Positions 5,347-46,048 of a DNA stretch of 64,000 nt are shown piece after piece; the stretch's first letter is position 1, and each line of letters opens with the position of its first letter. Made by a program: the position numbers and the translations under genes. Source of the stretch: a virus; IMG/VR virus record IMGVR_UViG_3300045120_000462. One strand, 5' to 3'. The notes below the pieces were generated by a model that searched no databases, was not told the origin of the DNA, and worked only from the letters and a program-made list of their open reading frames with translations.

Positions 5347-5378
5347 TTGTGGAATCTCACATAGCTGTGTGGTACGTT
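5347..5378 (+). promoter_or_regulatory. candidate promoter for a leaderless transcript
   Basis: GAGTTGTGG (-35-like TTGTGG 5347-5352), TACGTT 5373-5378, then 7 nt to ATG 5386; no SD; the 20-nt spacer is long. Confidence 0.4.
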
Positions 5379-5385
5379 GTTGAAC

Positions 5386-5688
5386 ATGTACACGAACCAT
5401 GACACGCTCAACGTCCCCTGTCCGCAGTGCGAGGCCGAGGTCGGCAAGTGGTGCGTGCCGGCGCACAAGCGCTACAAGTACGACCCCCGTTACTACGTGC
5501 ACGGCAAGCGCCAGGTGGCGTTCGAGATCTACCTGACGGGCGTCAAGCAGGGCGCCGACAAGGTGGTGCGGCTGACGTTCTCCGACCCGAGCTACGGGAC
5601 CGATCCGACTCTTGTGAAGGACGTGCAGGCGGACATCAAGGCGGTGCTGCTCATCCTGCGCAAGTACGGGTCGGCGTCGGCGGCGTGA
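5386..5688 (+). CDS. zinc-finger protein (CPxCxAxxGxxC...H..R motif)
   Basis: Frame of ORF 5377..5688; ATG 5386; VPCPQCEAEVGKWCVPAHKRY..YYVHGKR. Confidence 0.65.
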   Translation: MYTNHDTLNVPCPQCEAEVGKWCVPAHKRYKYDPRYYVHGKRQVAFEIYLTGVKQGADKVVRLTFSDPSYGTDPTLVKDVQADIKAVLLILRKYGSASAA

Positions 5689-5704
5689 GAGCTACCGTGG
5701 GAGC

Positions 5705-5808
5705 GGAGCAGTTCCTTCGTCGGTCTGCTCCTGGGAGGGGATGGCTGGGCGCCCGGCCCCCCTCCCTCGAATCGATCCGGTAGCACTATGGGATCATTCG
5801 ATGATCCC
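5705..5808. terminator. cluster of three stem-loops between convergent genes (bidirectional terminator candidate)
   Basis: GGAGCAG/CTGCTCC 5705-5731; GGGAGGGG/CCCCTCCC 5733-5766; GGGATCA ttcga TGATCCC 5790-5808. Confidence 0.6.
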
Positions 5809-5812
5809 CTAA

Positions 5813-6013
5813 CTACTCCTCCCACCACCTGACCATCCACTTGCCGCCGATCAGCTCGGGGAAGAAGGTACGTGAGTGGAAGGTGAGCTTGGCGCCGACC
5901 GGGAGCGGCCCGTAGCAGTCCTCGTCGAGGAAGTTCAGCTCGAAGGCTGCTTTGCCGGCGACCTCGAACTCCACCCCGTCGAGTGGGCCACCTAACCACG
6001 TAACGAGCAACAC
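5813..6013 (-). CDS. hypothetical protein
   Basis: ORF 5813..6013(-); last gene of the leftward operon. Confidence 0.65.
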   Translation of the reverse strand: MLLVTWLGGPLDGVEFEVAGKAAFELNFLDEDCYGPLPVGAKLTFHSRTFFPELIGGKWMVRWWEE

Positions 6014-6022
6014 AGCGCCAAC

Positions 6023-6481
6023 CTAATCGTCGTAGCCCATCAGCTCTCGGTAGTTGAAGTTCTTGCCGAGCGCTTGGTAGATGTGCCACAGGGGGCCGGT
6101 GAGGTAGTGGCACTCGCCGTTGTAGACCATTGCGTACTTGGGGATGAACAGGCGCCCGAGGACGAACAGCCGGCCTTCACGGGTGAGGCGCCACATGCCG
6201 GTGCGTGAGGAACCGTCGTCGCGCACACCGGGCTGCTTCTCGATCAGTCCCCACAGGTGGGGCTTGACGTTGTCGCCGCCGCCCCTCTGCTGCCCGACGA
6301 TGCTGTTGTAGATCTTCGGGACGTCCATGTAACCGAAGGGATCCTTGCGGTACATCTGGATCAGCATGCGCGCTGGCACGTCGTAGATCGAGCGATCGTA
6401 GAGATGCACGAGCTGGTGGCAGCGTGGGCAGAACGTGTCCTGCGGTAGCTGGGTCGTGGGGACGATCCCGGTGAACTTCAC
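6023..6481 (-). CDS. hypothetical protein (N-terminal CPRC; possible winged-helix region)
   Basis: ORF 6023..6481(-); high GC3. Confidence 0.65.
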   Translation of the reverse strand: MKFTGIVPTTQLPQDTFCPRCHQLVHLYDRSIYDVPARMLIQMYRKDPFGYMDVPKIYNSIVGQQRGGGDNVKPHLWGLIEKQPGVRDDGSSRTGMWRLTREGRLFVLGRLFIPKYAMVYNGECHYLTGPLWHIYQALGKNFNYRELMGYDD

Positions 6482-11214: not shown

Positions 11215-11242
11215 TTGACGTTGCGCAACATCGCTGTATTGT
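11215..11242 (+). promoter_or_regulatory. sigma70-like promoter driving a leaderless gene
   Basis: TTGACG 11215-11220, 16-nt spacer, TATTGT 11237-11242, 6 nt, ATG 11249. Confidence 0.55.
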
Positions 11243-11248
11243 GGTGCG

Positions 11249-11386
11249 ATGTTGTCGCAGGCGTCAGCCGACTCGAACACCATCGGGATGCTCGTGGTCG
11301 CCATTCTCGTGCTCGCCGGTCTGCTCATCGCAGACGTGGTCGCTGAGATCGTGCACATGCGTGAGCGACCCAAAGATCGCCACTGA
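11249..11386 (+). CDS. 45-aa single-pass membrane protein
   Basis: MLSQASADSNTIGMLVVAILVLAGLLIADVVAEIVHMRERPKDRH; below the ORF-track cutoff; followed by a terminator. Confidence 0.5.
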   Translation: MLSQASADSNTIGMLVVAILVLAGLLIADVVAEIVHMRERPKDRH

Positions 11387-11642: not shown

Positions 11643-13355
11643 CTACACCGTCGGCGGCAGGAACGGCGGCAGGGTGATGGTCGTCGTCGGCCCTGGCGGG
11701 AACGGGCCGTTCGGGTTGGCGCAGGCGCTGCTCTCGGGCGGGTACGTCACTAGCACTGGCCCGGCCGTTGGGTTGACGGTGTACGTCAGGAAGATCCCCT
11801 GCCTCAGGAAGGCGTCGCTGGGATCCTGCACCCAAAAGCCGTCGCTGTTCAGGTTCCACCCCGGCACGTCAGCGATGGACCCGTCGGAGTTCACCACCGT
11901 GCCGGGGTAGAGGATGTCCACCGTAGCCCCAGGCTCGTAGACGAGCGACTGCACCGACACGACTTCGCCGGTCGCGGCGGCGGTCATGGTGAGGGTTCCC
12001 GTGCGCCCAGCGAGCGACGGGAACTGGTTCTGGAACTCGATGCGGATCGTAGGCACCTCGCGCACGCACACGGTGCCGGCGGCGCCGAACGTGAACGTGT
12101 CAGGGAGGGTTGTCGAGCTTGTAGTCGTCGAACCCGATGGGGAGGTCGTTGAGGTCGAGGACGGGCTGGTCGGCCCACTTGTCGTCGTCGTAGAACCGGG
12201 GATCGTCGTCGAAGACGTAGTCGTCGGGGTCGTAGTGGGCGTGCTCGTCGATGTCGTCGTCTCCTCTGGCGGGCAGTTCTCGGGCAGCGTCACGACGGCC
12301 GTGGCCGTCTCGCCCGAGTTGGCGTAGGTCAGGGTGAGCGGGGTCGTGAGGCTCGCAGGGTAGGGGAAGGTGACCGTCTGGCCCGACTGGAAGACCAGCG
12401 GGTTGTTGGAATAGTCGGTGCCGTCCGAGAAGGTCAGCAGGCCGGGGACGCCGTTGAGGTCGGGCCGGTTGCCGAAGGTGATCGAGATCTCGGGGAGGTT
12501 GTCGTCGCCGCAGAAGGCGAAGTCGTCAATACCCAGGAGACTCGGTCGAGGAATGGTCGTTGTAGTGGTCGACGGCGCGGTCGATGAGGTGGTCGAACTT
12601 GTCGTCGTAGATCCCGGGACGGTCGAGCTTGTCGTGGTCGTCTGCTGGGGCTGGGTAGTGGTCGTCGAGGTGCTCGTCGTCGTTGAGGAGGTCGTGGAGG
12701 TCGATGTCGTAGATGTGGACGTAGGCGGCACGGTGGAGGTGGTCGTGCTTGGCGCGGTGGTCGAACTGGTCGTGGTGCTTGACGATGTCGTGGTTGTACC
12801 ACCATCAGGGAGGCACTCAGACACGTCCGGTTCGGGCTGGCCGACGTCGAAGGCGATCACCTTGGAGCGGCCCTGAGCGTCGGCGAAGAACGAGCCGATC
12901 ACGCCGTCCCAATCGGGGATCGCATTGACGCTGACCGAGATCGGGTTCTGACCCGTCTGCAGCCGCTCGTCAACTCCCGGCGTCCCCACGAACTTGCAGA
13001 CGAAGACCTTCTTGCTCGGCTCCGTCGTAGTTGTCGAGGTCGAAGAGGTCGTACTCGTGGATGACGTCGTTGTGGATGTCGAGGTAGAAGTCGGAGTAGA
13101 GGACGTAGTGGTAGGTGCGACCGTCGTAGTGGTGCTCGTGGTGGGCACCGTCTGCGGGTTCGTCGTCACGATCGTCGTCGTGGTAGCGCCGGCCGTCGTC
13201 GTGGTGTACGACGGGTGTGTCGTCGAGGTGGCCTGATGGGTCGTGGTCGTGTACCCGTACCCCGTCGGGATCGCCCCGCTCCCCCACCCGGCAACCACCG
13301 GGGTGCCCACCAGGACACCGCCCACTATCAGGAGCGCCGCAACCCTTGACTTCAT
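11643..13355 (-). CDS. secreted Thr/Ser-rich (mucin-like) multi-domain protein
   Basis: ORF 11643..13367(-); ATG 13355 preceded by GGAGGG; signal-peptide-like MKSRVAALLIVGGVLVGTPVVAGW; long poly-T/S linkers between globular segments. Confidence 0.75.
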   Translation of the reverse strand: MKSRVAALLIVGGVLVGTPVVAGWGSGAIPTGYGYTTTTHQATSTTHPSYTTTTAGATTTTIVTTNPQTVPTTSTTTTVAPTTTSSTPTSTSTSTTTSSTSTTSSTSTTTTEPSKKVFVCKFVGTPGVDERLQTGQNPISVSVNAIPDWDGVIGSFFADAQGRSKVIAFDVGQPEPDVSECLPDGGTTTTSSSTTTSSTTAPSTTTSTVPPTSTSTTSTSTTSSTTTSTSTTTTQPQQTTTTSSTVPGSTTTSSTTSSTAPSTTTTTIPRPSLLGIDDFAFCGDDNLPEISITFGNRPDLNGVPGLLTFSDGTDYSNNPLVFQSGQTVTFPYPASLTTPLTLTYANSGETATAVVTLPENCPPEETTTSTSTPTTTPTTTSSTTIPGSTTTTSGPTSPSSTSTTSPSGSTTTSSTTLPDTFTFGAAGTVCVREVPTIRIEFQNQFPSLAGRTGTLTMTAAATGEVVSVQSLVYEPGATVDILYPGTVVNSDGSIADVPGWNLNSDGFWVQDPSDAFLRQGIFLTYTVNPTAGPVLVTYPPESSACANPNGPFPPGPTTTITLPPFLPPTV

Positions 13356-13415
13356 CCCGCCCTCCACATCTCAGTTGGTCGGCCCACCCTAGTTCCGAGC
13401 CGGCGTTGAGTGGAG

Positions 13416-13446
13416 TTGTGCAACGGGGTTGAATATCTCCTAGACT
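13416..13446 (+). promoter_or_regulatory. candidate promoter for a leaderless transcript
   Basis: GAGTTGTGC (TTGTGC 13416-13421), TAGACT 13441-13446, 8 nt, ATG 13455; no SD. Confidence 0.45.
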
Positions 13447-13454
13447 AGCTAGTC

Positions 13455-13769
13455 ATGCAGGACGTGAACGCCCCGATCGACATCTTCCACCGGATCTCCC
13501 TGACCCTGATCGCCGACATCCGCAAGAAGCTGATCGAGCTGCACGACCCCGAGTGGGAGCCGGCGCCGATGGACCCCGAATGGGAACCGTCCCATCGTGA
13601 CTGTTTGCACCCCCGTCCGTACAGCGGCGGCTACCGTTCGCTGCTGGGGGAGCCGGCCCCACCCCTTCACCATGGTGACGAGGTGTTCTTCTACGATTAC
13701 GCCCTCGGCCGGGGAAGACACCCTTGTATCCTTGAACGTACCGATCGCACAGGAGTTATACGACGATGA
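13455..13769 (+). CDS. hypothetical protein
   Basis: ORF 13455..13769; high GC3 in the 5' part; ATGA coupling to the next gene. Confidence 0.55.
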   Translation: MQDVNAPIDIFHRISLTLIADIRKKLIELHDPEWEPAPMDPEWEPSHRDCLHPRPYSGGYRSLLGEPAPPLHHGDEVFFYDYALGRGRHPCILERTDRTGVIRR

Positions 13770-14906: not shown

Positions 14907-15142
14907 CCGACCTTCCTCTCCCCGAGGCGTTGGAGATGTCGTTCGAGCGCTCGAAGGCGATGTCCAGCACCGAGCTGGGCATCTGGATCGAGTCGACGGC
15001 GATGAACGTCGATCGGCTGCTCTCGGCGTACCGCCACGGCCCCACGATCAACATCGCCTGGGACATGCACCACCACGCCCTGCAGCTCGTCGGGATGACC
15101 CGTGCCCTCACCGAGAGCACCCAGCTACCTGCGGAGTTGTGA
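14879..15142 (+). CDS. hypothetical protein
   Basis: ORF 14879..15142; 28-nt overlap with upstream gene; alternative ATG at 14936. Confidence 0.5.
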   Translation: MGFRREKRLTDLPLPEALEMSFERSKAMSSTELGIWIESTAMNVDRLLSAYRHGPTINIAWDMHHHALQLVGMTRALTESTQLPAEL

Positions 15143-15165
15143 GTTATTCAACGAAGGCGTACGAT
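15137..15165 (+). promoter_or_regulatory. candidate promoter for a leaderless transcript
   Basis: GAGTTGTGA (TTGTGA 15137-15142), 17-nt spacer, TACGAT 15160-15165, 7 nt, ATG 15173. Confidence 0.55.
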
Positions 15166-15172
15166 CTCCATC

Positions 15173-15397
15173 ATGAACGCACCGTTGATCGCCACCCAGC
15201 TCGTCGAAGCACTCGGCAAGGTCTCCCCCGGCCTGCGCGCCACGTCGAGCGCCTCGTCCGTCCACAAGGGCCAGATCGTCGTGTTGATCGACGCCGACGA
15301 CGCACTGCGGGTGATCGACTTCATCAACGACAACACGCAGACAGTGACGACGGTTGACCCTCGCCAGGGTCAGCTCTTCGACCCCGCCGGCTACTGA
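15173..15397 (+). CDS. hypothetical protein
   Basis: ORF 15173..15397. Confidence 0.6.
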   Translation: MNAPLIATQLVEALGKVSPGLRATSSASSVHKGQIVVLIDADDALRVIDFINDNTQTVTTVDPRQGQLFDPAGY

Positions 15398-15399
15398 CG

Positions 15400-15405
15400 T
15401 AGCCT
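15400..15405 (+). promoter_or_regulatory. -10-like hexamer 6 nt upstream of the terminase start
   Basis: TAGCCT ggccgt GTG(15412); no SD. Confidence 0.35.
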
Positions 15406-15411
15406 GGCCGT

Positions 15412-16998
15412 GTGACGGCCACTGTTCGCGAGATCGCCGAGGAACCGTATGAGGAGATCTACGACGATCCCGACGACGGCGAGGAGTTCATCGAGGTAGA
15501 TCCCGAGAGCGCCGAGTTCATCCATGAGCTGACCATGCGTTGCATGGTCTTCATGGAGGCGTTGTCCGAGATCGAGATGTACCCGTACCAGAAGGATCTC
15601 GCCTACCGCACGATCCAGTCGGTACTGCTCAACGACGGCGCCGAGATCACCGCCCTGTGGGCGCGCCAGTCGGGCAAGTCGACGGCGCTCGCCGCCATCA
15701 TCGCCACGCTGATGGTGCTGCTGCCCAAGCTGGCCGCTGCCTACCCCGATCAGTTCGGTCAGTTCAAGCGTGGCTTTTGGGTCGGCGTGTTCGCCCCCAC
15801 CGAGGAACAGGCGTACACGATCTGGTCGAAGATCTACGACATCCTGTCGTGCAAGCACGGCCGCGAGATCCTCTCCGACGAGGACATCGAGGACGTGCCG
15901 CAGAAGGAAGGCTCGAAGGTCAAGGTCGTCAAGCTCGTCAACAGCCAGTCGATCTGCCGCATGCAGACGGCCAACCCGAAGGCGCAGATCGAGTCGAAGA
16001 CGTACCACTTCGTACTCCTCGACGAGAGCCAGGACTGCGACTCGGAGAAGGCCAAGAAGTCGATCTTCCCGATGCTCGCCTCGACCAACGGCACCAAGGT
16101 GTTCACCGGCACCTGTTCAAGGAAGCGCAACTTCTTCTACGACGCCATCCAGGCCAACAAGCGTCGCGCCACCCGGCGCGGTGGCCGGCAGGATCACTTC
16201 CAGTACGACTGGAAGGTCGTCGTCAAGTTCAACAACTTCTACAAGAAGTACATCGCTGGTGAGAAGGAGCGCATCGGCGAGGACTCCGACGAGTTCCGCC
16301 TGAGCTACGCCTGCCAGTGGCTGCTCGAACAAGGAATGTTCGTGACCGAGGAGAGCTTCGACTTCCTCGGCGATCCCAACATGGACATCATCCCGTGGTT
16401 CGTGATCGACAAGTGCGTCGCCGGCATCGACCCGGCGCGCACGAAGGACTCGACCGTGGTGACGGTGATGTGGGTCGACTGGAACAACCCCGACCCGTAC
16501 GGGTACTGCCAGCACCGCATCCTCAACTGGTTGGAGATCCAGAACAAGCCGTGGGAAGAGCAGTACGCCCGCATCATCGACTTCCTCTCTCACTACAACG
16601 TGGCGATCATCGGCGTGGACGGTCAGGGTCTCGGTGGGCCGATCGCCGAGCGCCTCGCCCACGAGATGCCGTGGGTCGATGTGCGCTCGCTCGGGTCCAA
16701 CCCGGCCGACCAGGAGAAGCGGTGGAAGCGGTTGAAGGCGCTGATCGAGCGCCGGATGTTCATCTACCCGGCCAGCCGGCAGTGCAAGAAGCGCCGCTCC
16801 TACAAGCGCTTCCGTCTGCAGTTCGAGGAGTTGGAGACGATCTACAGCGGCAAGTTCATGCTCGCTGCGGCGCCCGAGGTCGTGAACAGCTACGACGACT
16901 ACTGCGACTCGTCCGCATTAGCGGTGGCGGTCACCGAGGATGAGGACTTCGGCGTGATCGCTCAGATCGACTCGCCGTTCCATGGTCGACGTCGGTAA
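15412..16998 (+). CDS. terL: terminase large subunit
   Basis: 528 aa; Walker A ARQSGKST; Walker B HFVLLDESQD; C-terminal nuclease-like GIDPARTKDSTVVTV. Confidence 0.9.
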   Translation: MTATVREIAEEPYEEIYDDPDDGEEFIEVDPESAEFIHELTMRCMVFMEALSEIEMYPYQKDLAYRTIQSVLLNDGAEITALWARQSGKSTALAAIIATLMVLLPKLAAAYPDQFGQFKRGFWVGVFAPTEEQAYTIWSKIYDILSCKHGREILSDEDIEDVPQKEGSKVKVVKLVNSQSICRMQTANPKAQIESKTYHFVLLDESQDCDSEKAKKSIFPMLASTNGTKVFTGTCSRKRNFFYDAIQANKRRATRRGGRQDHFQYDWKVVVKFNNFYKKYIAGEKERIGEDSDEFRLSYACQWLLEQGMFVTEESFDFLGDPNMDIIPWFVIDKCVAGIDPARTKDSTVVTVMWVDWNNPDPYGYCQHRILNWLEIQNKPWEEQYARIIDFLSHYNVAIIGVDGQGLGGPIAERLAHEMPWVDVRSLGSNPADQEKRWKRLKALIERRMFIYPASRQCKKRRSYKRFRLQFEELETIYSGKFMLAAAPEVVNSYDDYCDSSALAVAVTEDEDFGVIAQIDSPFHGRRR

Positions 16999-17010: not shown

Positions 17011-17016
17011 TACGCT
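17011..17016 (+). promoter_or_regulatory. -10-like hexamer, leaderless architecture
   Basis: AACTACGCT gagacc ATG(17023). Confidence 0.45.
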
Positions 17017-17022
17017 GAGACC

Positions 17023-17424
17023 ATGACGATTGCACCCAATCCGTTGTACCCCGAGCGGGCCAACCAGGCGTTCGAGCTGGCCTTCGCCGCCAACCCTGCG
17101 GGCAACCGTGGGGACATGCGGTTCGAGGAGGGCATCGGCACCGACACTGACGTTCCCAACGACTTCGTTCGTGGGGCGTTCGTCGACCCGACCGCCGCTC
17201 CGGGGCGCATCAACCACAACAACCCCGAGATGGTCTACAAGCACGCCGACGAGACGATGCAGGAGCGCGCCCACGTCGGCAGCGCATCGTGGATCGAGGC
17301 GCCGGCCATGCTCTCCGACTTCGTGGCAGGAGCCAGCGCCGGCCAGACGCCGCCGCAGTTCGAGATGATCGTGGTGCCTGGCGGCTACATGTACCGGCGA
17401 GCGCCAACGGTCATCGACGACTGA
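17023..17424 (+). CDS. hypothetical protein
   Basis: ORF 17023..17424. Confidence 0.65.
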   Translation: MTIAPNPLYPERANQAFELAFAANPAGNRGDMRFEEGIGTDTDVPNDFVRGAFVDPTAAPGRINHNNPEMVYKHADETMQERAHVGSASWIEAPAMLSDFVAGASAGQTPPQFEMIVVPGGYMYRRAPTVIDD

Positions 17425-19270: not shown

Positions 19271-20644
19271 GTGCCCAAGGAAGTCCGCCAGTACGGCAAG
19301 AAGGCACTGACGAAGCAGGCCGGCACGGGGTTGGAGGGGACCGCCACCAACTACACGCCCGAGCACATGGAGTCTCCCGATGTGCAGCGGACGATGGGCG
19401 AGATGCACGCTCGCCGGCTGTCGTTCGAGAACTCCCCCGGCAGTACTCGAATGCACTCACCGCTGCGCGGTGTCGGTGATCTCGACGTTGCGTACGAGAG
19501 CCGTGGCTGGCACGACATCGAGCGTCAGCACGGCGCCGCCGGCCCCTCGATGGGTGATTACAAGGAGCTGGCCGAGTCAGGCCACAACCCGTTCCCACAG
19601 CCGACCCGCTTCGAGGATCTGCCCGATGAAGAGCAGGCCCGCGCCCACGCTGGCTTGAAGGCGCACGGCACGTCGTACCGGCGCCTCGTCAACGACCTCG
19701 GGCGGGGACTAGACCGCGCCTACTCACGATCCAGTGAGATGGGCGGGATCCCGGTTGCCTCGAACTTCTACGAGCCGGAGGGTTTCCCTCGCCTGGTGAT
19801 CGCCCATCACATGCCCGAGGCGCCGGCCGAGCATGCTGCTGCGGCGATCGCCATGACGTCACCGAAGAACAAGTTCCTCCACGTGACGAACAAGGGTGCC
19901 GTGAACATGCCCAACATCAACTCCGCTGTGGCAGCGGGGTCGATCGCAACCAGTGGGCGCTACACGACGTCGGACCAGTTCAAGAAGATCCCCGGGCCGG
20001 AACTCAACAAGATCGGGCGCACGGTCAGTGGTGGTGGTGTCGGTCTCCACGGCAACGTGCGCAAGGCCGGCTACGCACTGCACCAGGGAGCCGAGGGCGG
20101 CGACATCTCCGAGTGGCGTGGCTTCCCGACGAAGGCCGCTCCGGCGGGCAGTAAGAAGGGTGGCGAACTCGGCGGCAGCCTCATCTTCGGAGGGTCGCCG
20201 AAGGCATCACCGTTTGCTTCATCGTTCATCGACGAGGCAGCGCCGTTCCATGTCACCGACGTGCACATGGCGTCGTTGGCGTTCCCGCACCTCTCGTCGA
20301 TCAAGGGTTCGGGCAAGAACATCAACCCGAGCGGCGCCAGTACCGGCACCAAGACCGAGCGCGAGCTGGCCGTCGAGCGTGTCCCCCACGCCCACGCCAT
20401 CATCGACCACGCCATGCGTACCGCCATGGGTGAGCGTGGCTTGAACAAGATCCGCTTCCAGCAGGGCGCCGCCTGGGGCGAGGAGCAGATCCACCGCACG
20501 ATCATGCCCGAGCCTGGTGGTCGGCGACTCGGGTTCCGTCCCGACACCGTCTACCAGTGGCAGGCAGCGACCATGCCGCACACGAACCTGAACTTCCGGG
20601 CACGTACCAAGGCGGGTGTTGGCACCCTCCACTTGCCAGACTAG
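19271..20644 (+). CDS. hypothetical protein (457 aa)
   Basis: GTG 19271 after GAGGAG; frame of ORF 19151..20644; no motif recognised. Confidence 0.65.
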   Translation: MPKEVRQYGKKALTKQAGTGLEGTATNYTPEHMESPDVQRTMGEMHARRLSFENSPGSTRMHSPLRGVGDLDVAYESRGWHDIERQHGAAGPSMGDYKELAESGHNPFPQPTRFEDLPDEEQARAHAGLKAHGTSYRRLVNDLGRGLDRAYSRSSEMGGIPVASNFYEPEGFPRLVIAHHMPEAPAEHAAAAIAMTSPKNKFLHVTNKGAVNMPNINSAVAAGSIATSGRYTTSDQFKKIPGPELNKIGRTVSGGGVGLHGNVRKAGYALHQGAEGGDISEWRGFPTKAAPAGSKKGGELGGSLIFGGSPKASPFASSFIDEAAPFHVTDVHMASLAFPHLSSIKGSGKNINPSGASTGTKTERELAVERVPHAHAIIDHAMRTAMGERGLNKIRFQQGAAWGEEQIHRTIMPEPGGRRLGFRPDTVYQWQAATMPHTNLNFRARTKAGVGTLHLPD

Positions 20645-20647
20645 AGT
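20642..20647 (+). promoter_or_regulatory. -10-like hexamer overlapping the upstream stop
   Basis: TAGAGT tatgac ATG(20654). Confidence 0.4.
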
Positions 20648-20653
20648 TATGAC

Positions 20654-22359: not shown

Positions 22360-22365
22360 TACCGT
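22360..22365 (+). promoter_or_regulatory. -10-like hexamer within a repeated 12-mer
   Basis: GTACCGTTGAGG 22359-22370 is identical to 30757-30768; followed by an SD-led gene at 22395. Confidence 0.35.
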
Positions 22366-22394
22366 TGAGGCGAACACTCACAAGGAGAACTGCC

Positions 22395-25009: not shown

Positions 25010-25015
25010 TGGTTC

Positions 25016-30703: not shown

Positions 30704-30727
30704 TCCCCCTCCCTCGTGGGAGCGATG

Positions 30728-30751
30728 GAAGCGCCCCGGCGGGGGCGCTTC
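30728..30751 (+). terminator. perfect 10-bp GC-rich stem-loop followed by TTC
   Basis: GAAGCGCCCC ggcg GGGGCGCTTC. Confidence 0.7.
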
Positions 30752-30757
30752 TTCGCG

Positions 30758-30763
30758 TACCGT
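30758..30763 (+). promoter_or_regulatory. -10-like hexamer, leaderless architecture
   Basis: TACCGT tgaggt GTG(30770); lies within the 12-mer shared with 22359-22370. Confidence 0.4.
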
Positions 30764-30769
30764 TGAGGT

Positions 30770-31105
30770 GTGGCTGCAGACGAGCACCTCGGGCTGCAGT
30801 TCGAGTACGAGCACTTCCCGCCGTCCGAGAGTGGTGTCTCGTTCGATCAGCACCGGATCTACGCCAACGTCGGTGACACCGAGGTCGGCCACATGTCGTG
30901 GAGCCAGAAGGGCATCCACTACATCGAAGCGCGCCGACCTCGACAGGGCATCGCTACAGCGTTGTGGAACGAAGGCCATCGACTGGCTGCGGAGAACCCG
31001 AGCATCGTCAAGCCGGCGCACACTGCCGACCGCACCGACTCCGGTGACGCCTGGGCGCGAGCGGTCGGTGGGCGCCTTCCCCGGCGCAAGAGGGACGAAG
31101 GTTAG
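30770..31105 (+). CDS. hypothetical protein (N-terminus ADEHLGLQF shared with 26085 product)
   Basis: ORF 30770..31105; IHYIEARRPRQGIATALWNEGHRLA is weakly GNAT-like. Confidence 0.55.
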   Translation: MAADEHLGLQFEYEHFPPSESGVSFDQHRIYANVGDTEVGHMSWSQKGIHYIEARRPRQGIATALWNEGHRLAAENPSIVKPAHTADRTDSGDAWARAVGGRLPRRKRDEG

Positions 31106-33882: not shown

Positions 33883-33888
33883 TACGCT
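33883..33888 (+). promoter_or_regulatory. -10-like hexamer, leaderless architecture
   Basis: ATCTACGCT ggcatc ATG(33895). Confidence 0.45.
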
Positions 33889-33894
33889 GGCATC

Positions 33895-34755
33895 ATGGGT
33901 CGCAGCGTCGAGTCCCTGATGTACGACGCCCGCACGTGGCTGCGTGACTTCCCGACCTTCTTCACTGCCAGCTCTCCTGCGGTCTCGATCGCCAACCGCA
34001 CGATCAACCTGCCGCACATGAACATCGCCGTCGGTGGTCTCGTCGCATGGGCCACCGACGGCACCAACACGTGGAACGGGGTGCTCGACGACCACGAGAC
34101 GGTGGTGGCCGGCGCTCAGTTCGGCTACCTGCTCGATCAACGCAATGGCCTGATGCAGGTCGGCACCGTACCGACGACGCCGGCCTTCACCAGCGGCGCC
34201 CACATCAACGTCGAGGGCTTCTACACCGACTGGGTGGCCGACCAGGACTTGAAGTTCCACACCACCAACGTCATCGCCGAGTACAGCTACGGCCAGCCGA
34301 CGTGGACACTCGACACGATCGGCGATGTCGAGGCCGACCTCGTCTCACTGCGCACTGCGTGTGACGTGCTCTTCGCTCTGCTCGTGCAGTACTCCCGTGA
34401 CATCGACGTGTCGACGCCACAGGCGATGAGCATCCCGGCGACACAGCGTTTCCATCAGGTGAACACGTTGTTGTTCGGGCCGGGTGGCCTCATGGACAAG
34501 TTGAAGACCAAGGAGGACATGCTCGGTGTGGGCCTCGGGCGCGCCGAGATCGGCACGTTGCGCCGGGTGAGCAAGACGACCAACCGGCTCGTACCGGTGT
34601 ACGTGGTGCGTGAGTACGACGACATCTCCAAGCCACGCCGGCTGTTCACCGAGCCAGACACCATGGGCCAGTTCTCGCCGCCGACCGGCTTCACTCCTGG
34701 CCGCGAGCTGATCGAGGCGCAGGGCGGCACCATCCCGACGGAACCGAACCCGTGA
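33895..34755 (+). CDS. hypothetical structural protein (head/neck module)
   Basis: ATG 33895 in frame of ORF 33682..34755; 286 aa. Confidence 0.6.
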   Translation: MGRSVESLMYDARTWLRDFPTFFTASSPAVSIANRTINLPHMNIAVGGLVAWATDGTNTWNGVLDDHETVVAGAQFGYLLDQRNGLMQVGTVPTTPAFTSGAHINVEGFYTDWVADQDLKFHTTNVIAEYSYGQPTWTLDTIGDVEADLVSLRTACDVLFALLVQYSRDIDVSTPQAMSIPATQRFHQVNTLLFGPGGLMDKLKTKEDMLGVGLGRAEIGTLRRVSKTTNRLVPVYVVREYDDISKPRRLFTEPDTMGQFSPPTGFTPGRELIEAQGGTIPTEPNP

Positions 34756-35995: not shown

Positions 35996-36046
35996 AACTA
36001 CTGTTGGGCATGAGACCGGATTGCGCCCGGCTCCCCAACAGTTAGT
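35996..36046 (+). terminator. imperfect stem-loop
   Basis: CTGTTGGG (36001-36008) / CCCAACAG (36034-36041) with partial extension; right arm contains GTTAGTAG, as in the 4.7-4.95 kb iterons. Confidence 0.3.
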
Positions 36047-36059
36047 AGGTGCGTCAGCA

Positions 36060-36365
36060 GTGACAAGGCCACTGTTCGAGTTCAACACGTCCGTCGTCGA
36101 GGCGTTCAGTGGTGACCTCATGCTGCAGCACCTCACTCAGGCCCAGGACGCCGTCGAGCACGAGATCCGCGAGTCGCTACGCAAGCAGGCGCCGGATGAG
36201 GAGTTCGACATCTACTGGGAGGACGACCAGATCGTTGTCGGTCTGACGGCGGAGCAAGCACAGCGTGAGTTCGGCGAACCCGGTACTCCGCTGACCGCTA
36301 CGGTACGCACCGCTCTGGCCGGCGCTGCCGAGCGCCTTCGCCCCAAGTTGGCCATCCGTGAGTGA
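36060..36365 (+). CDS. hypothetical protein
   Basis: GTG 36060 in frame of ORF 35910..36365; alternative ATG 36120. Confidence 0.5.
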   Translation: MTRPLFEFNTSVVEAFSGDLMLQHLTQAQDAVEHEIRESLRKQAPDEEFDIYWEDDQIVVGLTAEQAQREFGEPGTPLTATVRTALAGAAERLRPKLAIRE

Positions 36366-43500: not shown

Positions 43501-44603
43501 TGCGGAGCTTCTTCGACGTCAACGACGAGCCGTGGCACGTGCAGCCGGCCGAGCTGCCCGGTAGCCGCTCTGCGTACGAGAAGCAAGGGCTGGACAAGGT
43601 GTGGGGCACGTCGGCGGCGTCCAATGGCGCTGCTACCGACACCACCGCGACCGCTGGTGACAGTGGTAGTGGCGGCGGCGGTGGTGGAGGCGGCGGCGGC
43701 GCCAGCATCTCCTCTGGCCTCGGTGGTAGCAGTGCAGGTCTCCTCAGTCAGGGCACGTCGAGCCTGGCGACGTTGCAGGGCGGCGCCGGCTTCATGGGCG
43801 GCGGTGGTGGCGGTGGTGGCGACACCAGCACGGTGACCGACGCAGCAGCGCCCGACACGACGAGCACGTACACGGGCGGCAAGATGACCGGCGACGATGT
43901 CGCCAAGATGGCCTACGAGGTCGGCTTCCGCGGCCAGGGTCTGATCAACGTCATCGGCATCACCAACCGTGAGTCGGATTGGGATCCGTCGGCGCACAAC
44001 ACCAACCGCGGTACCGGCGACAACAGCTACGGCCTGGGCCAGATCAACATGCTCGGCAGCCTCGGCCCCGAGCGCGCCCGCCTGTTCGGGATCACCAACT
44101 ACGACGACCTGCTCAACCCGAAGACGAACCTGATGGCCATGTACAAGCTGTCGGGCAACGGCCAGAACTTCGGTCCATGGCTCTCGTACCGCCCCGGCCT
44201 CGAACTGAGCCAGAAGCGCATCCAGATCGCCACCGAGATCGTCAAGCGACTGCACCTCGGTGATGCAGCGTTCGATCATGGTGATGACGGTCGGCGGGGC
44301 AGCGTCCTGTCTGCTCGCGAGGAGAGCGAGGCGCGCCGTATCATCGCCAGCGCTCACCTCGGCGATCCGATCTCAGAGTCGGGGATGGGAGCCAGCTCGT
44401 TCGGCGGGGCCGCTCTCCCGCCCGGCAGAACCGTCGGGGGCTTCTCTCGTTCGATGAGGAGTGCGGTCGGCGGCGGTGTCACCGTCAACGTCACGATCCA
44501 GTCGCAAGGCAACTACGCCTACGACGCACAACGATTGGCCAAGGCGGTGCGCCCGGCGATCGAGGCCGAGTACGCCGAGGTCACAGCGAAGAGGAGCACG
44601 TAA
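40515..44603 (+). CDS. tape measure protein with embedded M15-type peptidase and lytic transglycosylase domains
   Basis: 1362 aa after the chaperone; GRSMHEIGLAAD...DEPWHVQP (~43200-43560); ITNRESDWDPSAHN..SYGLGQINM (~43880-44200); poly-Gly linkers. Confidence 0.9.
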   Translation: MPPPNEPAVGLGAASGTSSRSGRGPSTTSPTPTTTLSAKLSWDGLKGMASSWKEVATATREVLANLGGIISLARTGGSVLNNLGKTGTGIGGSTGSTQTSNHWLNNVPSVAARQSNGPVNGGLRPVSGPGGSMTPFVNNVNRGPGATGPAAAPSAAAQTTTAAPTVSSLGTPSARTAAAAVANAVGGGGGGTTGTGTPAPSGGTSMPWMSRLNVGLNMAMVATAGVANMASDRLHRNIVESIPLSAQATFAASMYGGNPNQIEMDRFRMLGQFAGSRQDVAQTAALSFRMGQTPTQAAQYMQGLGTATQAFGGTATTTQLAQANAGFLDPMVLRRQRSMGIQYARVGGQVRQPFDVAKDYIRNYEQRFNGGRKLNQFDFINLGTPGSGIRIRFQQLYMLDDETIDTWIVTAGLQQAQAGGNIDYNSSAALSAAGLNKNQLGLQALSTQTAGSRREASFAQQNQTGEVSNLRTEESIQNALAGVEDAASGLTNTFASLERVVKTLTAGLGLLGGVGLARSMLGGGGGGGGGGGLLGGLLRGGGSAAEGEVSAGAGGLSAGGSFALGTIGAVGVGMGIQQAVNAKDWGDIFQSTAMTTAGGAALGGAVGGPPGAVIGAAGGLAVGVAANIWGHFVGSDGFTEEEQRATQGAQIQAADMSDKQIINAYRHWYMTEGPGHGMKKNPDGTYQSGTGLARPQEPRLTDFNSLRVDPYKYPVISGYIDMYQRRRAQLIVAWMDAAKSRNPETFNKAAEFGGMQDEFTGTAHWLGEWQDVREKFNTFATTGGMIDDDDFHDAGDRLISVTKAVRAPTYYKRYEGGADERAIYDEFFPGLTNPMQIKPDYSEAATAVANLYSTPLNGQTGDPTDPAATATSTDTSGQYAFVNRMPMAPEPHDASWNGMHPIMKKRILAMIAGSKGKVHWEAGGGTRSTEQQRAMFLDRYRPGPGRGEVTWNGQKWHHVSGAAAAPPGRSMHEIGLAADMGGDMGWIVAHSKAYGLRSFFDVNDEPWHVQPAELPGSRSAYEKQGLDKVWGTSAASNGAATDTTATAGDSGSGGGGGGGGGGASISSGLGGSSAGLLSQGTSSLATLQGGAGFMGGGGGGGGDTSTVTDAAAPDTTSTYTGGKMTGDDVAKMAYEVGFRGQGLINVIGITNRESDWDPSAHNTNRGTGDNSYGLGQINMLGSLGPERARLFGITNYDDLLNPKTNLMAMYKLSGNGQNFGPWLSYRPGLELSQKRIQIATEIVKRLHLGDAAFDHGDDGRRGSVLSAREESEARRIIASAHLGDPISESGMGASSFGGAALPPGRTVGGFSRSMRSAVGGGVTVNVTIQSQGNYAYDAQRLAKAVRPAIEAEYAEVTAKRST

Positions 44604-45775
44604 TGGGGACGACAGGTACCGCCGGAGCAGCTCAGCCGTCACAGTTGCCGGTTGGCAGCACCGCCATCAACACCACGTACAGCATCAACAACGACTACCT
44701 CTACCCCCGCTACGTAGCTCCTCCGATGCTGGACGGGCTGTTCCAGAACAGTACGTGGTGGACGAGGCTGTGGGGGACCGGTCTGGTCCGCGGCTGGATC
44801 TACCCGTGCGACATCGACCCCGAGCTGATCACGGCAGCAGCAGCAACCGACCCATCCACTGCGGCCTCCACCGTGGTGTCGGCGCGGATGGCGTTGGAGC
44901 AAGGCACCACGACCACGACGACCACCGACGCCAACCCTCAGGGCCACTTTGCTGTTGGTCCTGGCGCAACGTTGCAGACCGGTGAGAAGAAGACGAAGCC
45001 GAAGCGGATTCGCTTCTCGCAGGGCAAGCAGTTCCAGTTCAATCCTTTCTCGGCCAGCCTGACGATCGACTTCCAGCACGCCTCGGCGCCGGCCGAGACG
45101 TTGCAGACGAATGGCACAGCTTCGGAGTCACAGGTCGGCACGGCGACGACCGGCATCGAGATGTTCTTCGATCGCTCGATGGAGGTGGCTGCGGCCACCG
45201 CCGGGGTCAAGAAGGTAGACGGTCACACCATCGATCCGATCTTCGCCGACGTCGGCGTGCAGAAGGATCTGTGGGACGTCTACCGGGTCATCCTCGGCGG
45301 CGACCAGGACTACTTCGCCAAGATCGGATCCACCCTCGTCAACATCGACACCGTCTACGGGATGAAGGTCCAGCCCGGCAGCATCACCGACATGACGGGC
45401 CGGCTGTTCGACCTCGGGGCGCAGGGCATCTCGGCGTGGGGCCGTGGCGTGGCCGTCTACTACAACCCGAACATGGTGTTCATTGGCTGGGTCAGCTCGA
45501 TGGCGTTCACCTACGCCGAGTTCAACGCCAACTACATCCCGACGAAAGCGAAGATGGACATGGGACTGCAAGTGCTCTACTCGACCTCGGAGTCGGGCGG
45601 CGATGCGTTCGTCAATTCGACCGACACCACCACCGACCCCACTGTCGTCGCCACCACCGTCCAGAACCCCGACGGGACCACCACCCACACGCAGACCAAC
45701 CCGGCCACGTACACCGCCTCCGACTACAACCCGCCGACACAGACCACCTCCGCCGGCACCCACTACACGGTCTAG
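44603..45775 (+). CDS. baseplate hub / tube-initiator-like protein (FNP-motif CIS-tube-like domain)
   Basis: ATG overlaps TAA by 1 nt; KRIRFSQGKQFQFNPFSASLTIDF ... IEMFFDRS pattern; position after the tape measure. Confidence 0.6.
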   Translation: MGTTGTAGAAQPSQLPVGSTAINTTYSINNDYLYPRYVAPPMLDGLFQNSTWWTRLWGTGLVRGWIYPCDIDPELITAAAATDPSTAASTVVSARMALEQGTTTTTTTDANPQGHFAVGPGATLQTGEKKTKPKRIRFSQGKQFQFNPFSASLTIDFQHASAPAETLQTNGTASESQVGTATTGIEMFFDRSMEVAAATAGVKKVDGHTIDPIFADVGVQKDLWDVYRVILGGDQDYFAKIGSTLVNIDTVYGMKVQPGSITDMTGRLFDLGAQGISAWGRGVAVYYNPNMVFIGWVSSMAFTYAEFNANYIPTKAKMDMGLQVLYSTSESGGDAFVNSTDTTTDPTVVATTVQNPDGTTTHTQTNPATYTASDYNPPTQTTSAGTHYTV

Positions 45776-45778
45776 GGT
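45773..45778 (+). promoter_or_regulatory. -10-like hexamer overlapping the upstream stop
   Basis: TAGGGT cgaatc GTG(45785). Confidence 0.3.
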
Positions 45779-45784
45779 CGAATC

Positions 45785-46048
45785 GTGGACCGCTACGTCA
45801 ACCAGAAGACGGTGAGCATGCCGCACAGCAACGGCACGCAGGTCACCGTGGTACTGCGCCGGCCGATCTTCCCGTCGCGGCAGAAGTTCATGACGTACAC
45901 CGCCACTGCTGCTGATGCGATGTGGACGTTGGCCGATCGGTTCTACAAGAACACCTTCGACTGGTGGACGATCGCCGACATGAACCCACACGTCGAGTGC
46001 CCCGATGATCTCCACTACGGGACGCAGTTGCTGCTTCCGGTGACGTGA
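45785..46048 (+). CDS. LysM-like tail protein (P2 gpX-like)
   Basis: ORF 45785..46048; YTATAADAMWTLADRFYKNTFDWWTIADMNPH..LHYGTQLLLP. Confidence 0.7.
   Translation: MDRYVNQKTVSMPHSNGTQVTVVLRRPIFPSRQKFMTYTATAADAMWTLADRFYKNTFDWWTIADMNPHVECPDDLHYGTQLLLPVT

Follow-up and report, generated by a model that had tools for sequence, protein, structure and literature searches.

Location and form of the sites

The window (the whole stretch of viral DNA analysed, 64 kb) carries 16-17 genes, among them those for the large terminase, the portal protein and a baseplate-like protein, in which a hexamer of the form TAnnnT lies a fixed short distance before the start codon; we call such genes TA-led. All 14 combinations of hexamer, spacer and start codon listed in a preliminary description of this DNA were found at the coordinates quoted for them, and three further sites, at 26854 (portal), 55008 and 6013 (minus strand), were absent from that list. 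In the features below, numbers between hyphens are spacer lengths in nt and SD is a Shine-Dalgarno sequence.

5373..5388, plus strand: TACGTT-7-ATG 5386, predicted leaderless-type promoter of a gene for a 100-aa zinc-finger protein (Pfam Phage_zn_bind_8)
6011..6025, minus strand: TAGGTT-6-GTG 6013, TA from the TAG stop of the upstream gene 6023-6481 (minus strand)
11215..11251, plus strand: TTGACG-16-TATTGT-6-ATG 11249, with a -35-like hexamer, before a 45-aa predicted membrane peptide
13355..13391, minus strand: TAGGGT (13391-13386), leftward, then a short leader with SD GTGGAGGG and ATG 13355
13413..13457, plus strand: GAGTTGTGCAACG ... TAGACT-8-ATG 13455, predicted first rightward promoter of a divergent control region
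15134..15175, plus strand: GAGTTGTGA (-35-like)-17-TACGAT-7-ATG 15173
15400..15414, plus strand: TAGCCT-6-GTG 15412, large terminase gene
17011..17025, plus strand: AAC-TACGCT-6-ATG 17023, kept in relatives L001, L005 and L009
18769..18783, plus strand: TACGCT-6-GTG 18781
20619..20656, plus strand: TTGGCA-17-TAGAGT-6-ATG 20654, TA from the TAG stop of the upstream gene
22360..22397, plus strand: TACCGT 22360, then a leader of ~23 nt with SD AAGGAGAA and ATG 22395
25004..25018, plus strand: AAC-TACGGT-6-ATG 25016
25428..25442, plus strand: AAC-TACGCT-6-ATG 25440
26842..26856, plus strand: TAAGGT-6-GTG 26854, portal protein gene (phrog_64 portal)
30722..30756, plus strand: terminator-like hairpin 3' of the major capsid gene, the next predicted promoter following directly
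30758..30772, plus strand: TACCGT-6-GTG 30770, kept in relative L012
31103..31118, plus strand: TAGAGT-7-ATG 31116, TA from the TAG stop of the upstream gene
33883..33897, plus strand: ATC-TACGCT-6-ATG 33895
35999..36062, plus strand: AAC-TACTGT 35999, then a leader of ~50 nt with an SD and GTG 36060
45773..45787, plus strand: TAGGGT-6-GTG 45785, TA from the upstream TAG stop; the product resembles a baseplate wedge protein
54995..55010, plus strand: TAAGCT-7-ATG 55008, a 27-codon acidic ORF overlapping the endolysin start at 55088; the weakest candidate

At the left of the window, the gene opening at ATG 5386 has a coding score of 47.8, and a repeat, ACGTTGTTGAACA, overlaps both its hexamer and its start codon. 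The element GAGTTGTG lies upstream of it at 5344-5351 and was said to be common to three sites; it does recur, at 5344, 13413 and 15134. The -35-like hexamers noticed earlier are also present (TTGACG-16-TATTGT at 11215 and TTGTGA-17-TACGAT at 15137), and a scan with an E. coli-type consensus found 20619..20656 as its sole site. On the minus strand, GTG 6013 is the first start of an ORF of 66 aa with a coding score of 27.9, and ATG 13355 opens an ORF of 574 aa. The hexamer at 13391 (minus strand), TAGGGT, is a putative promoter, as are TACCGT 22360 and AAC-TACTGT 35999, the last of which precedes the genes for sheath, tube and tape-measure proteins.

Two starts in the virion region merit comment. 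The preliminary description wavered between GTG 18778 and GTG 18781; the second, with spacer 6, stands, and 18778 is rejected, since relatives have TACGCT followed by GGGCAT, GGGCGT or GGGTTC and then GTG, with only the second GTG conserved. For the gene at 33895, the coding score is 127 from this start, compared with 85 from the longer-ORF start at 33682. The extended form (A/T)(A/T)C-TACG(C/G)T, attributed earlier to several sites, occurs at 17023, 25016, 25440 and 33895, and the use of an upstream TAG stop as the beginning of the hexamer holds at 20642, 31103 and 45773, with a fourth case at 6025 (minus strand). The hairpin at 30722..30756 has a predicted energy of -35.8 kcal/mol (z=-3.8), and a UUCUUCG tail comes directly after it. 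A promoter role is improbable for some intergenic hexamers: TACTAT 29520 and TAACCT 28580 lie inside hairpins, and TAGGAT 40511 shares bases with a stop and with a start codon.

Phasing of the hexamer with gene starts

Genes and starts were called with our own codon-usage caller under a longest-ORF rule, blind to the hexamer; the caller is crude, above all at 5.8-13.4 kb. TAnnnT is as rare as was supposed, with 53 occurrences on the plus strand of the 64 kb window and 32 on the minus strand. Measured from the blind starts, its offsets form a single sharp peak, with 10 genes at spacer 6, two at spacer 7 and one at spacer 8, and 0-2 genes at each of the remaining offsets from -60 to +40. The enrichment survives a background comparison: the hexamer stands at spacer 6-8 before 14 of 81 gene starts, compared with 7 of 4,445 other ATG/GTG codons (Fisher p=1.1e-20). 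Conversely, the window holds 21 instances of TAnnnT-N6-8-ATG/GTG, 16 of which begin an ORF that is 40 codons or longer and scores positive for coding, the start codon being the first of its ORF in 12 of these 16. The same peak appears when GC-rich relatives are pooled (55 of 968 genes at spacer 6, over a background of ~3 per offset).

The hexamer is exclusive to genes that have neither an SD nor stop/start coupling (14 of 38, compared with 0 of 44; p=4e-6). The claim that almost every such gene carries it is roughly right for 13.4-57 kb and too strong for the window as a whole (14 of 38 with blind starts) and for its left arm. Correction of three start-call errors raises the 14 sites of the blind table to 17 in all. 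TTG is used at 0 of 53 hexamer-associated starts and at 60 of 653 other starts.

Conservation among relatives

Across the close clade of related metagenomic phages, TAnnnT at spacer 6-8 is kept in 26 of 28 non-identical orthologous upstream regions, compared with 1 of 85 control orthologues of SD-led or coupled genes. The inner bases vary (TAAGGT/TAGGGT, TACGCT/TAGCCT, TAGAGT/TAGGCT/TAGAAT, TAGCCT/TAAGCT/TAGTCT), and the flanks of conserved hexamers can be unrelated between orthologues. At 25016, for example, the upstream flank in L002 and L009 is unrelated, yet GTACGGTTGG..CATG is kept. The terminase gene of L003 follows a different upstream gene and still has TAAGCT-6-GTG; in L017 and L040 it has TAGTCT-7/8-ATG.

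Comparable substitutions are seen at the start homologous to 11249 (TATCAT-6-ATG in L003), at 13455 (TACCAT or TAGGAT at spacer 7, with no change in the distance between GTTGTGCAA and ATG), at 15173 (GGTTGTGAGTTATTCAAGGATGTCGTATGAT-7-ATG), at 20654 (TAGAAT-6-ATG in L005), at 31116 (TAGAGT-7 in L012, TAGGCT-7 in L010) and at 33895 (TAGCCT-6-ATG in L009 and L010). The portal start has TAGGGT-6-GTG in close relatives and is TA-led or SD-led in distant ones, and the orthologues of 30770 in L010 and L011 are SD-led instead of TA-led.

Strand, context and avoidance

Between 13.4 and 64 kb, hexamers that touch intergenic DNA lie on the coding strand in 21 cases and on the other strand in one (p=1e-5). 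The base at -1 is a pyrimidine at 36 of 42 hexamer starts, compared with 336 of 590 other starts (p=1.5e-4), and the hexamer starts have a purine at +1 and are G-rich at -6 to -4. Within genes TAnnnT is depleted 6-9 fold on both strands (observed/expected 0.11-0.16; sense 0.16, antisense 0.12; z about -11), and when compared with synonymous-codon shuffles it is the most depleted of 64 XYnnnZ patterns, TAnnnC having a ratio of 0.98. The corresponding ratios are 0.16/0.35 for phiC31 and 0.24/0.24 for D29, with a weaker depletion (about 0.5) in Pseudomonas phage D3112. All frames of mycobacterial coding sequence are depleted in the -10 consensus, and in M. tuberculosis, where TANNNT is avoided, an introduced TANNNT creates intragenic start sites (PMC10653884). 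That depletion belongs to a host genome; here it is found in phage DNA.

Proposed function and alternatives

An actinobacterial host is indicated. The endolysin is most closely related to lysin A proteins from phages of Mycobacterium, Rhodococcus and Corynebacterium, and a contig whose capsid protein is 80% identical was binned with a Nocardioidaceae genome. The hexamers are probably -10 promoters read by the host primary sigma factor, giving leaderless mRNAs and short transcription units. TAnnnT would thus be the -10 element for host RNA polymerase carrying a SigA/HrdB-type sigma factor. As actinobacterial promoters usually do, most of these would act with no -35 element that can be recognised. 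Because the hexamer ends 6 (sometimes 7-8) nt before ATG or GTG, the first transcribed base should be the A or G of that codon or lie no more than 1-2 nt from it; a 6-nt gap between hexamer and +1 is the standard distance from a -10 element to the start site. The resulting mRNA would lack both a 5' leader and a Shine-Dalgarno sequence, and its translation would follow the leaderless route.

At least three hexamers placed further upstream (22360, 35999 and, on the minus strand, 13391) would serve SD-led genes. Taken together, the TA-led and SD-led promoters would split the region of virion, assembly and lysis genes at 13-57 kb into some 16 short transcription units. The capsid gene is followed by at least one clear terminator hairpin. 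The core of the preliminary description (-10 elements, start codons as transcription starts, many internal promoters, leaderless units) is supported by every computational test that we ran. Initiation by RNA polymerase at these sites, the sigma factor used, the time of firing and the extent of read-through are matters of prediction here. We likewise infer many units rather than one long operon, although such promoters are compatible with read-through transcripts.

Could part of the set belong to the phage rather than to the host machinery? A subset with the form C-TACGCT-GG (17023, 18781, 25016, 25440, 33895 and 35999) might constitute leaderless promoters of a phage-specific class, read by a modified host polymerase or by a phage sigma factor encoded outside the window. 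No other hexamer comes near TACGCT in frequency within the family (13 of 89 unique sites), its flanks (AAC or ATC upstream, GG downstream) recur in the window and are kept in relatives, and the whole holds more sequence than a bare -10 element requires. The late promoters of the Thermus phage Lalka27a (TAGGGT) also have a distinct -10, ascribed by the authors to a phage factor. We nevertheless consider such a class unlikely. Orthologous sites exchange TACGCT for TAGCCT with the architecture intact, no position upstream of -13 is conserved among 60 spacer-6 sites, and primary sigma factors generally favour GGG immediately after the -10 element. Moreover, a Pfam scan of 40 window proteins revealed no sigma factor, no polymerase and no known sigma-binding domain; the window represents 64 kb of a genome of ~110 kb, the rest of which might encode a sigma factor or polymerase.

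Classical phage late regions are long operons, and only one strong terminator lies between units of this one. It might be argued, then, that long read-through transcripts are translated internally without an SD, by re-initiation or 70S scanning, and that the hexamers are weak or incidental promoters, some of them simply a TAG stop followed by T. Four sites (20642, 31103, 45773 and, on the minus strand, 6025) do use the upstream TAG with a gap of only 9-10 nt, and these could be served by translational re-initiation without a promoter. As an account of the whole set this appears distinctly improbable. At most sites the gap is 14-307 nt without an SD, which is unfavourable for re-initiation, and the pattern is kept where the upstream gene differs, as for the L003 terminase. 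The strand bias, the pyrimidine at -1 and the genome-wide avoidance of TAnnnT are promoter signals at the DNA level, and on a rough estimate chance would place TAG-NNN-T at gaps of 8-10 nt in ~0.6 genes, compared with the four observed.

The fixed short distance to the start codon, and the fact that the hexamer takes the place of an SD, would also suit an RNA-level translation-initiation signal that is no promoter at all, like the start-associated sequences of Cluster K mycobacteriophages. We give this very little credence: just three positions are fixed, with the inner bases free to vary; the geometry matches a -10 element exactly; nothing SD-like occurs in the motif; and its avoidance is just as strong on the antisense strand of genes, where a signal in the mRNA would have no bearing. 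Finally, chance, or a choice of starts to fit the hexamer, was tested and rejected as having a negligible probability, for although the starts listed earlier were picked by eye, blind calls reproduce the peak, and in six comparison phages the same pipeline counts only 0-3 such genes per phage.

Comparison with known systems

The Cluster K start-associated sequence, which Pope and colleagues are said to have described in 2011, is reportedly conserved over 13 bp and has an SD-like core. In both cases a motif recurs directly before many start codons of an actinophage; here, however, only T, A and T are fixed and there is no SD, so that the element is of a different kind.

The architecture itself is not new, being the described TA-led leaderless structure (PMC3160421), found also in Thermus phages. 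TA-led leaderless genes are known from Actinobacteria and Deinococcus-Thermus, where TANNNT begins ~12 nt before the start codon, and make up ~20% of actinobacterial genes (18.9% in S. coelicolor) (Zheng et al. 2011, PMC3160421); they have been validated experimentally in Deinococcus radiodurans (PMC12340547). The phage sites resemble these cellular genes in the position of TANNNT, in inner bases that are poorly informative in GC-rich genomes, in the lack of an SD, in the switching of orthologues between SD-led and TA-led forms, and in a gene share, about 14-20% here, close to the actinobacterial ~20% (PMC3160421). They differ in belonging to a phage genome, in being concentrated in a virion, assembly and lysis module, and in having predicted starts.

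In Lalka27a, RNA 5' ends lie 6 nt downstream of TANNNT (bioRxiv 10.64898/2026.04.20.719267). According to the same preprint, which cites Sevostyanova et al. 2007, all promoters of phiYS40 and Lalka27a have TANNNT, and most transcripts have the A or G of the initiator codon as their first base; these Thermus phages share with ours a wide use of TA-led leaderless genes. Their hosts belong to another phylum (Deinococcus-Thermus, compared with an inferred actinobacterium for ours), and their lineages are not related to it. Lalka27a has temporal classes with a defined consensus and measured 5' ends, whereas here classes are only hinted at (the GAGTTGTG group and the C-TACGCT-GG group).

The point of interest is density. 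In this uncultured, GC-rich phage of an apparent actinobacterium about one gene in five has the TA-led design, which is unusually frequent among the virion genes; it accounts for 14-20% of genes, terminase and portal included, compared with 0-5% in five comparison phages. Cluster O mycobacteriophages have predicted leaderless SigA-like promoters, three per genome, at divergent control regions and at one leftward gene (PMC4351075). With the same blind pipeline, Corndog has 3 such genes of 59, compared with 11 of 79 here (14-17 after correction of start calls).

Phasing of a -10-like hexamer at start codons

The preliminary description of this DNA had listed TAnnnT hexamers, resembling -10 elements, a few nucleotides upstream of many start codons, and all of the listed sites are there as written. 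The hexamer is also as rare as had been claimed, with just 53 copies on the plus strand of the window and 32 on the minus strand. Gene starts were called with our own codon-statistics caller, which is crude, above all between 5.8 and 13.4 kb; the start of the longest ORF was taken, or the next start where overlap with the upstream gene exceeded 10 nt, and the hexamer played no role in these blind starts. Measured from them, the offsets of TAnnnT form a single spike, with ten hexamers at a spacer (the distance between hexamer and start codon) of 6 nt, two at 7 nt and one at 8 nt, compared with 0-2 at any other offset. The spacer-6 peak puts the first T of the hexamer at -12, as expected of TA-led genes, those preceded by the hexamer and presumed to be leaderless, in which this T lies about 12 nt before the site where translation begins.

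Scoring against background ATG and GTG codons bears out the proposed phasing: a hexamer at spacer 6-8 is present at 14 of 81 gene starts, compared with 7 of 4,445 others (Fisher p=1.1e-20). In the family as a whole (the window and its metagenomic relatives) there are 89 unique sites, with spacers of 6 nt (60 sites), 7 nt (22) and 8 nt (7). The window contains 21 occurrences of TAnnnT-N6-8-ATG/GTG, 16 of which begin ORFs that run for 40 codons or more and score positively for coding; in 12 of these 16 the start is the first in its ORF. The start codon at window sites is ATG (10) or GTG (6), and family-wide the numbers are 59 and 30. TTG occurs at none of 53 hexamer-associated blind starts, compared with 60 of 653 other starts, and the restriction to AUG or GUG, with a purine at +1, is that of TA-led starts. 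Chance and start-picking bias are excluded as the source of the pattern. Three hexamers had been missed in the preliminary description:

26842, plus strand, TAAGGT-6-GTG, portal gene
54995, plus strand, TAAGCT-7-ATG 55008
6025, minus strand, TAGGTT-6-GTG 6013

The hexamer excludes other start signals. All 14 blind hexamer genes lack both stop/start coupling to the upstream gene and a Shine-Dalgarno (SD) sequence, an SD being scored as absent where pairing is weaker than -7 kcal/mol; among the 44 genes that are SD-led or coupled, no hexamer is found (p=4e-6). At four hexamer sites, with gaps of 9-10 nt, coupling to the upstream gene is ambiguous. Orientation points the same way. From 13.4 to 64 kb every gene lies on the plus strand and intergenic DNA totals 2.8 kb; the hexamers that touch this DNA number 21 on the plus strand and one on the minus strand (p=1e-5). 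Of the 21, 13 are placed for leaderless starts, two are clearly leadered and most of the others look incidental. Three hexamers in the window look like leadered promoters of SD-led genes:

22360, plus strand, candidate promoter before ATG 22395
35999, plus strand, candidate promoter before GTG 36060
13391, minus strand, candidate promoter before ATG 13355

Base preferences are seen at the start itself. Hexamer starts in the family have a pyrimidine at position -1 in 36 of 42 cases, compared with 336 of 590 other starts (p=1.5e-4), and positions -6 to -4 are G-rich. Both features, the -1 pyrimidine and the G-rich positions that follow the hexamer, lend indirect support to transcription that would start at the start codon.

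Conservation among relatives

In the close clade, the near relatives of the window, 26 of 28 non-identical orthologous upstream regions retain TAnnnT at spacer 6-8; this count is confined to the close clade, a first pooled count having been swamped by distant SD-led portal homologues. The inner bases drift, from TAAGGT to TAGGGT at the portal gene, from TACGCT to TAGCCT at 33895, from TAGCCT to TAAGCT or TAGTCT at the terminase gene, and also from TAGAGT to TAGGCT or TAGAAT. In the relative L003 a different gene lies upstream of the terminase gene and the hexamer pattern is nevertheless present, while the flanks of the 25016 site cannot be aligned among relatives. For control genes that are SD-led or coupled, 1 of 85 orthologues has a hexamer.

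In more distant relatives one and the same gene, such as the portal gene or the homologue of 30770, is now TA-led and now SD-led, as seen when window genes 26854 and 30770 are compared with loci L010, L011, L021, L026, L047 and others; in L010 and L011 the 30770 homologue is SD-led (GGCGGAGGTG). This switching is of the same kind as that described by Zheng et al. between orthologues of cellular genomes (PMC3160421). Distant homologues of window gene 17023 have a conserved upstream block, TA(G/A/T)GCT-CGCCC(T)GATAC, that contains TAnnnT (loci L045, L047, L049, L052, L054, L076, L078, L086 and L088). No ATG, GTG or TTG lies 5-9 nt downstream of the hexamer in this block, which may be a leadered promoter or mark an unusual start.

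Depletion of the hexamer within genes

Synonymous-codon shuffles of 57 genes, in which 64 XYnnnZ patterns were ranked, show TAnnnT to be the most depleted of all within window genes. On the sense strand 24 copies are observed against 151 expected (ratio 0.16) and on the antisense strand 17 against 140 (0.12); the overall ratio for both strands is 0.11-0.16, compared with 0.98 for TAnnnC. The depletion is not a peculiarity of this phage, since phiC31 (0.16/0.35), D29 (0.24/0.24) and Mycobacterium tuberculosis show it too; ratios are ~0.5 in the GC-rich Pseudomonas phage D3112 and ~0.7 in phage BRock. For M. tuberculosis, depletion of TANNNT has been published, and recoding that adds TANNNT creates intragenic start sites (PMC10653884). 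Together, the wider occurrence of the depletion and these intragenic starts show that in this host group the hexamer acts as a signal by itself. The in-gene depletion known for M. tuberculosis now extends to phages.

Putative promoter anatomy and sub-motifs

The 89 pooled family sites have no -35 consensus and no conserved position upstream of -13, and across 60 family sites there is no information content near -35. Upstream of the -10 element, a TTGACA-like hexamer at a distance of 16-18 nt is found at 3 of 17 sites only, which falls short of the canonical -35/-10 arrangement of sigma-70 promoters. Two -35-like hexamers reported earlier hold up (TTGACG-16 at 11215 and TTGTGA-17 at 15137), and there is one more:

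20619, plus strand, -35-like hexamer, TTGGCA-17

This scarcity fits the -10-only promoters typical of Actinobacteria. An E. coli-type promoter and terminator scan proved unsuitable, giving one promoter (20619-20647) where 2.1 are expected and ten terminators where 7.2 are expected, and TTGTG-N20-TAnnnT, tried as a general pattern, has one match only.

The upstream element said to be common to three sites is indeed present, as GAGTTGTG, before 5386, 13455 and 15173. If one mismatch is allowed, the window shows no enrichment of it (41 matches, 62 expected); exact copies number five, three of them at promoters, and it is possibly an operator or a -35 variant. At 13455 it forms part of TGTGCAACG, whose distance to the ATG is constant in relatives although the hexamer moves by 1 nt; this motif may be an operator instead of a -35 element. 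As TGTKCAACG, this same motif has six copies in the window (4964, 5044, 5054, 13417, 41351 and 61581), compared with 1.2 expected. At 5041-5065 two of these are joined in a perfect palindrome, AGATGTGCAACG-T-CGTTGCACATCT; another immediately precedes the 13455 promoter. Gene 5386, the product of which has a phage zinc-finger DNA-binding domain, has a related repeat, ACGTTGTTGAACA, across its -10 element and start codon; possibly these sites and this protein are an operator and regulator pair. Another sub-motif, C-TACGCT/TACGGT-(G/T)G, is common to five or six sites: 17023, 18781, 25016, 25440, 33895 and the leadered 35999.

Two strong hairpins flank the major capsid gene, at 29505-29558 (-27.5 kcal/mol, z -3.3) and 30722-30756 (-35.8 kcal/mol, z=-3.8). 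The second follows the gene, has a U-rich tail and adjoins the hexamer at 30758; it looks like an intrinsic terminator. Two hexamers considered as capsid or scaffold promoters, TACTAT at 29520 and TAACCT at 28580, were dropped, both being inside strong hairpins, with TACTAT 29520 in the one before the capsid gene. Further downstream, a very acidic ORF of 27 codons, 55008-55091 (MSDAPDDDDTIPENPEQESDEADADDE), has TAAGCT-7 upstream and a 4-nt overlap with the start codon of the endolysin gene; it could encode a real peptide or be a mere transcribed leader.

Phage lineage and probable host

The window, at about 65% G+C, represents 64 kb of a ~110-kb genome. A nucleotide search of GenBank phages found no match to it, so that its identity rests on protein similarity. 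Its predicted proteins identify a myovirus:

15412-16998, plus strand, large terminase
26854-28554, plus strand, portal
29576-30703, plus strand, major head protein
37108-38724, plus strand, tail sheath
38735-39355, plus strand, tail tube
55088-56761, plus strand, endolysin

The nearest isolated phages are BRock-like Streptomyces myoviruses, of ~112 kb and only 51% G+C, with protein identities of 44% for the terminase and 62% for the capsid. Much closer relatives are metagenomic contigs only (L001-L005 and L009-L013), with nucleotide identities of 70-90%; one is part of a contig of 111 kb (IMGVR_UViG_3300043499_000238). The clade of the window has no cultured member nearer than the BRock-like phages. 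Its capsid is common to more than 80 metagenomic contigs (L009-L088 and L093) of 51-67% G+C, at 52-92% amino-acid identity, and across these contigs the density of TAnnnT drops steeply as G+C rises, from ~8/kb at 53% to 0.2-1.5/kb above 62%.

The host is most likely an actinobacterium, judging from the endolysin, which is closest to the lysin A proteins of Mycobacterium, Rhodococcus and Corynebacterium phages, and from a contig that was binned with a Nocardioidaceae genome and carries a capsid 80% identical to that of the window.

Comparison with other phages and cellular genomes

The TA-led structure accounts for ~20% of genes in Actinobacteria and Deinococcus-Thermus, and 18.9% in Streptomyces coelicolor (PMC3160421), in line with the earlier statement that leaderless genes are common in Actinobacteria. 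Experiments have validated it in Deinococcus (PMC12340547). The window agrees with these genes in each property that sequence can address: position of the hexamer, lack of SD or coupling, use of AUG or GUG, and excess over background. Among phages, most transcripts of the Thermus phage Lalka27a are leaderless; they come from TANNNT promoters and their 5' ends map 6 nt past the hexamer, and a passage of the same paper says that transcripts of phiYS40, another Thermus phage, are likewise mostly leaderless and from TANNNT promoters (bioRxiv 10.64898/2026.04.20.719267). Temporal promoter classes with distinct consensus sequences are a feature of this phage type; in the window two recurrent sub-motifs, C-TACGCT-GG at five or six sites and GAGTTGTG before three, may hint at such classes. 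For Cluster O mycobacteriophages, three leaderless promoters have been predicted (PMC4351075).

Five GC-rich phage genomes and BRock were run through one blind pipeline. TA-led genes number 11 of 79 in the window, 0 of 47 in phiC31, 0 of 49 in D3112, 1 of 64 in D29, 3 of 59 in Corndog, 2 of 55 in Min1 and, against a high background, 2 of 52 in BRock. Those of the comparison actinophages include genes of lysogeny type, such as the integrase gene, which is the single D29 case, and a gene at the probable repressor position of Min1. The TA-led share is 14-20% in the window, compared with 0-5% in phiC31, D29, Corndog and Min1, implying that actinophages vary widely in adopting the leaderless mode of their hosts.

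Cluster K phages reportedly have, immediately before start codons, a conserved repeat of ~13 bp that includes an SD-like core, the start-associated sequence. The window motif does not match it, as it fixes three positions only, its inner bases vary, and its sites have weak SD pairing (-0 to -4 kcal/mol).

Proposed mechanism and alternatives

A motif phased to start codons, oriented with the genes, conserved in relatives and avoided elsewhere is what the sequences show; that transcription initiates there, with which sigma factor, when, and with how much read-through, we infer. In the most probable scenario, host RNA polymerase carrying the primary sigma factor would bind the -10 element, and transcription would begin 6-7 nt downstream of the hexamer, at the first base (A or G) of the start codon. 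Such an mRNA, having neither leader nor SD, would be translated via the leaderless route. On the sequence evidence, most of the sites are probably real transcription starts close to the start codon, and the DNA between 13.4 and 57 kb would then split into about 16 units with a mean length of 2.7 kb. A more far-reaching reading, which we consider rather doubtful, is that this uncultured, GC-rich sister clade of the BRock-like Streptomyces myoviruses has rebuilt its entire virion, assembly and lysis module as ~15 separately promoted, largely leaderless, -10-only mini-operons, in the manner of the Thermus phages phiYS40 and Lalka, possibly together with a phage-specific C-TACGCT-GG promoter class or with a phage-induced change that turns host translation towards leaderless mRNAs.

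The TACGCT-GG subset might instead be a promoter class specific to the phage. We think this unlikely, although it would be compatible with leaderless output; a Pfam search of 40 window proteins found no phage sigma factor or RNA polymerase. Distinctly improbable is expression chiefly from read-through transcripts with SD-independent re-initiation, plausible solely for the four sites with a TAG stop and gaps of 9-10 nt. That the hexamer is a translation signal in the RNA is hardly credible, being contradicted by the antisense depletion and by the variable inner bases.

Implications

The usual picture of tailed-phage late genes is of one or a few long operons. If transcription starts at the start codon, as we propose, the terminase gene, the portal gene and about a dozen further virion-module genes would each seem to own a minimal promoter. 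Expression levels could then be tuned for each gene through its transcription, and the phage would rely on the primary sigma factor of its host and on leaderless translation. TA-led architecture is already established and existing knowledge is not overturned. What is locally notable is a density like that of host genomes (14-20%) at terminase, portal, baseplate-like and other virion-module genes of an actinophage lineage, which is useful for annotation and for understanding phage expression but will not surprise a specialist.

For annotation, TAnnnT-N6-ATG/GTG reliably marks the true start codon in this phage family. It settles the start at 33895 rather than 33682, at 5386 rather than at upstream TTGs, and at 18781 rather than 18778, the last of which was also ruled out by comparison with relatives. 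Gene-finding programs that learned from SD-led starts will place hexamer-led ones wrongly. In synthetic biology, the sites are ready-made candidates for short, naturally varied, -10-only promoters for use in GC-rich actinobacteria.

Other regions of the window

Scans of the whole window for tRNAs and Rfam families were empty. A stretch of ~1.1 kb, 4283-5385, has no convincing ORF, tRNA or Rfam match and contains many direct repeats laden with stops (TAGTTAGTAGCTC, positions 4691 and 4925). It has near-perfect hairpins at 4879-4913, 4975-5010 and 5041-5065, and TAnnnT on both strands, including a tandem TAGGCTCCGCAG at 5106 and 5138; a role as control region, origin or non-coding RNA is possible.

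Finally, the minus-strand ORF 11643-13367 (574 aa), for which Pfam and PHROG gave no match, has an atypical G+C by codon position (GC1 0.46 < GC2 0.66). An interpretation from base composition, in which it is the shadow of plus-strand ORFs, was dropped, since its amino-acid identity among relatives is 72-74%, compared with ~58% for the overlapping plus-strand ORFs. Conservation favours the minus frame, and 13368-13454 is therefore treated as a divergent control region.
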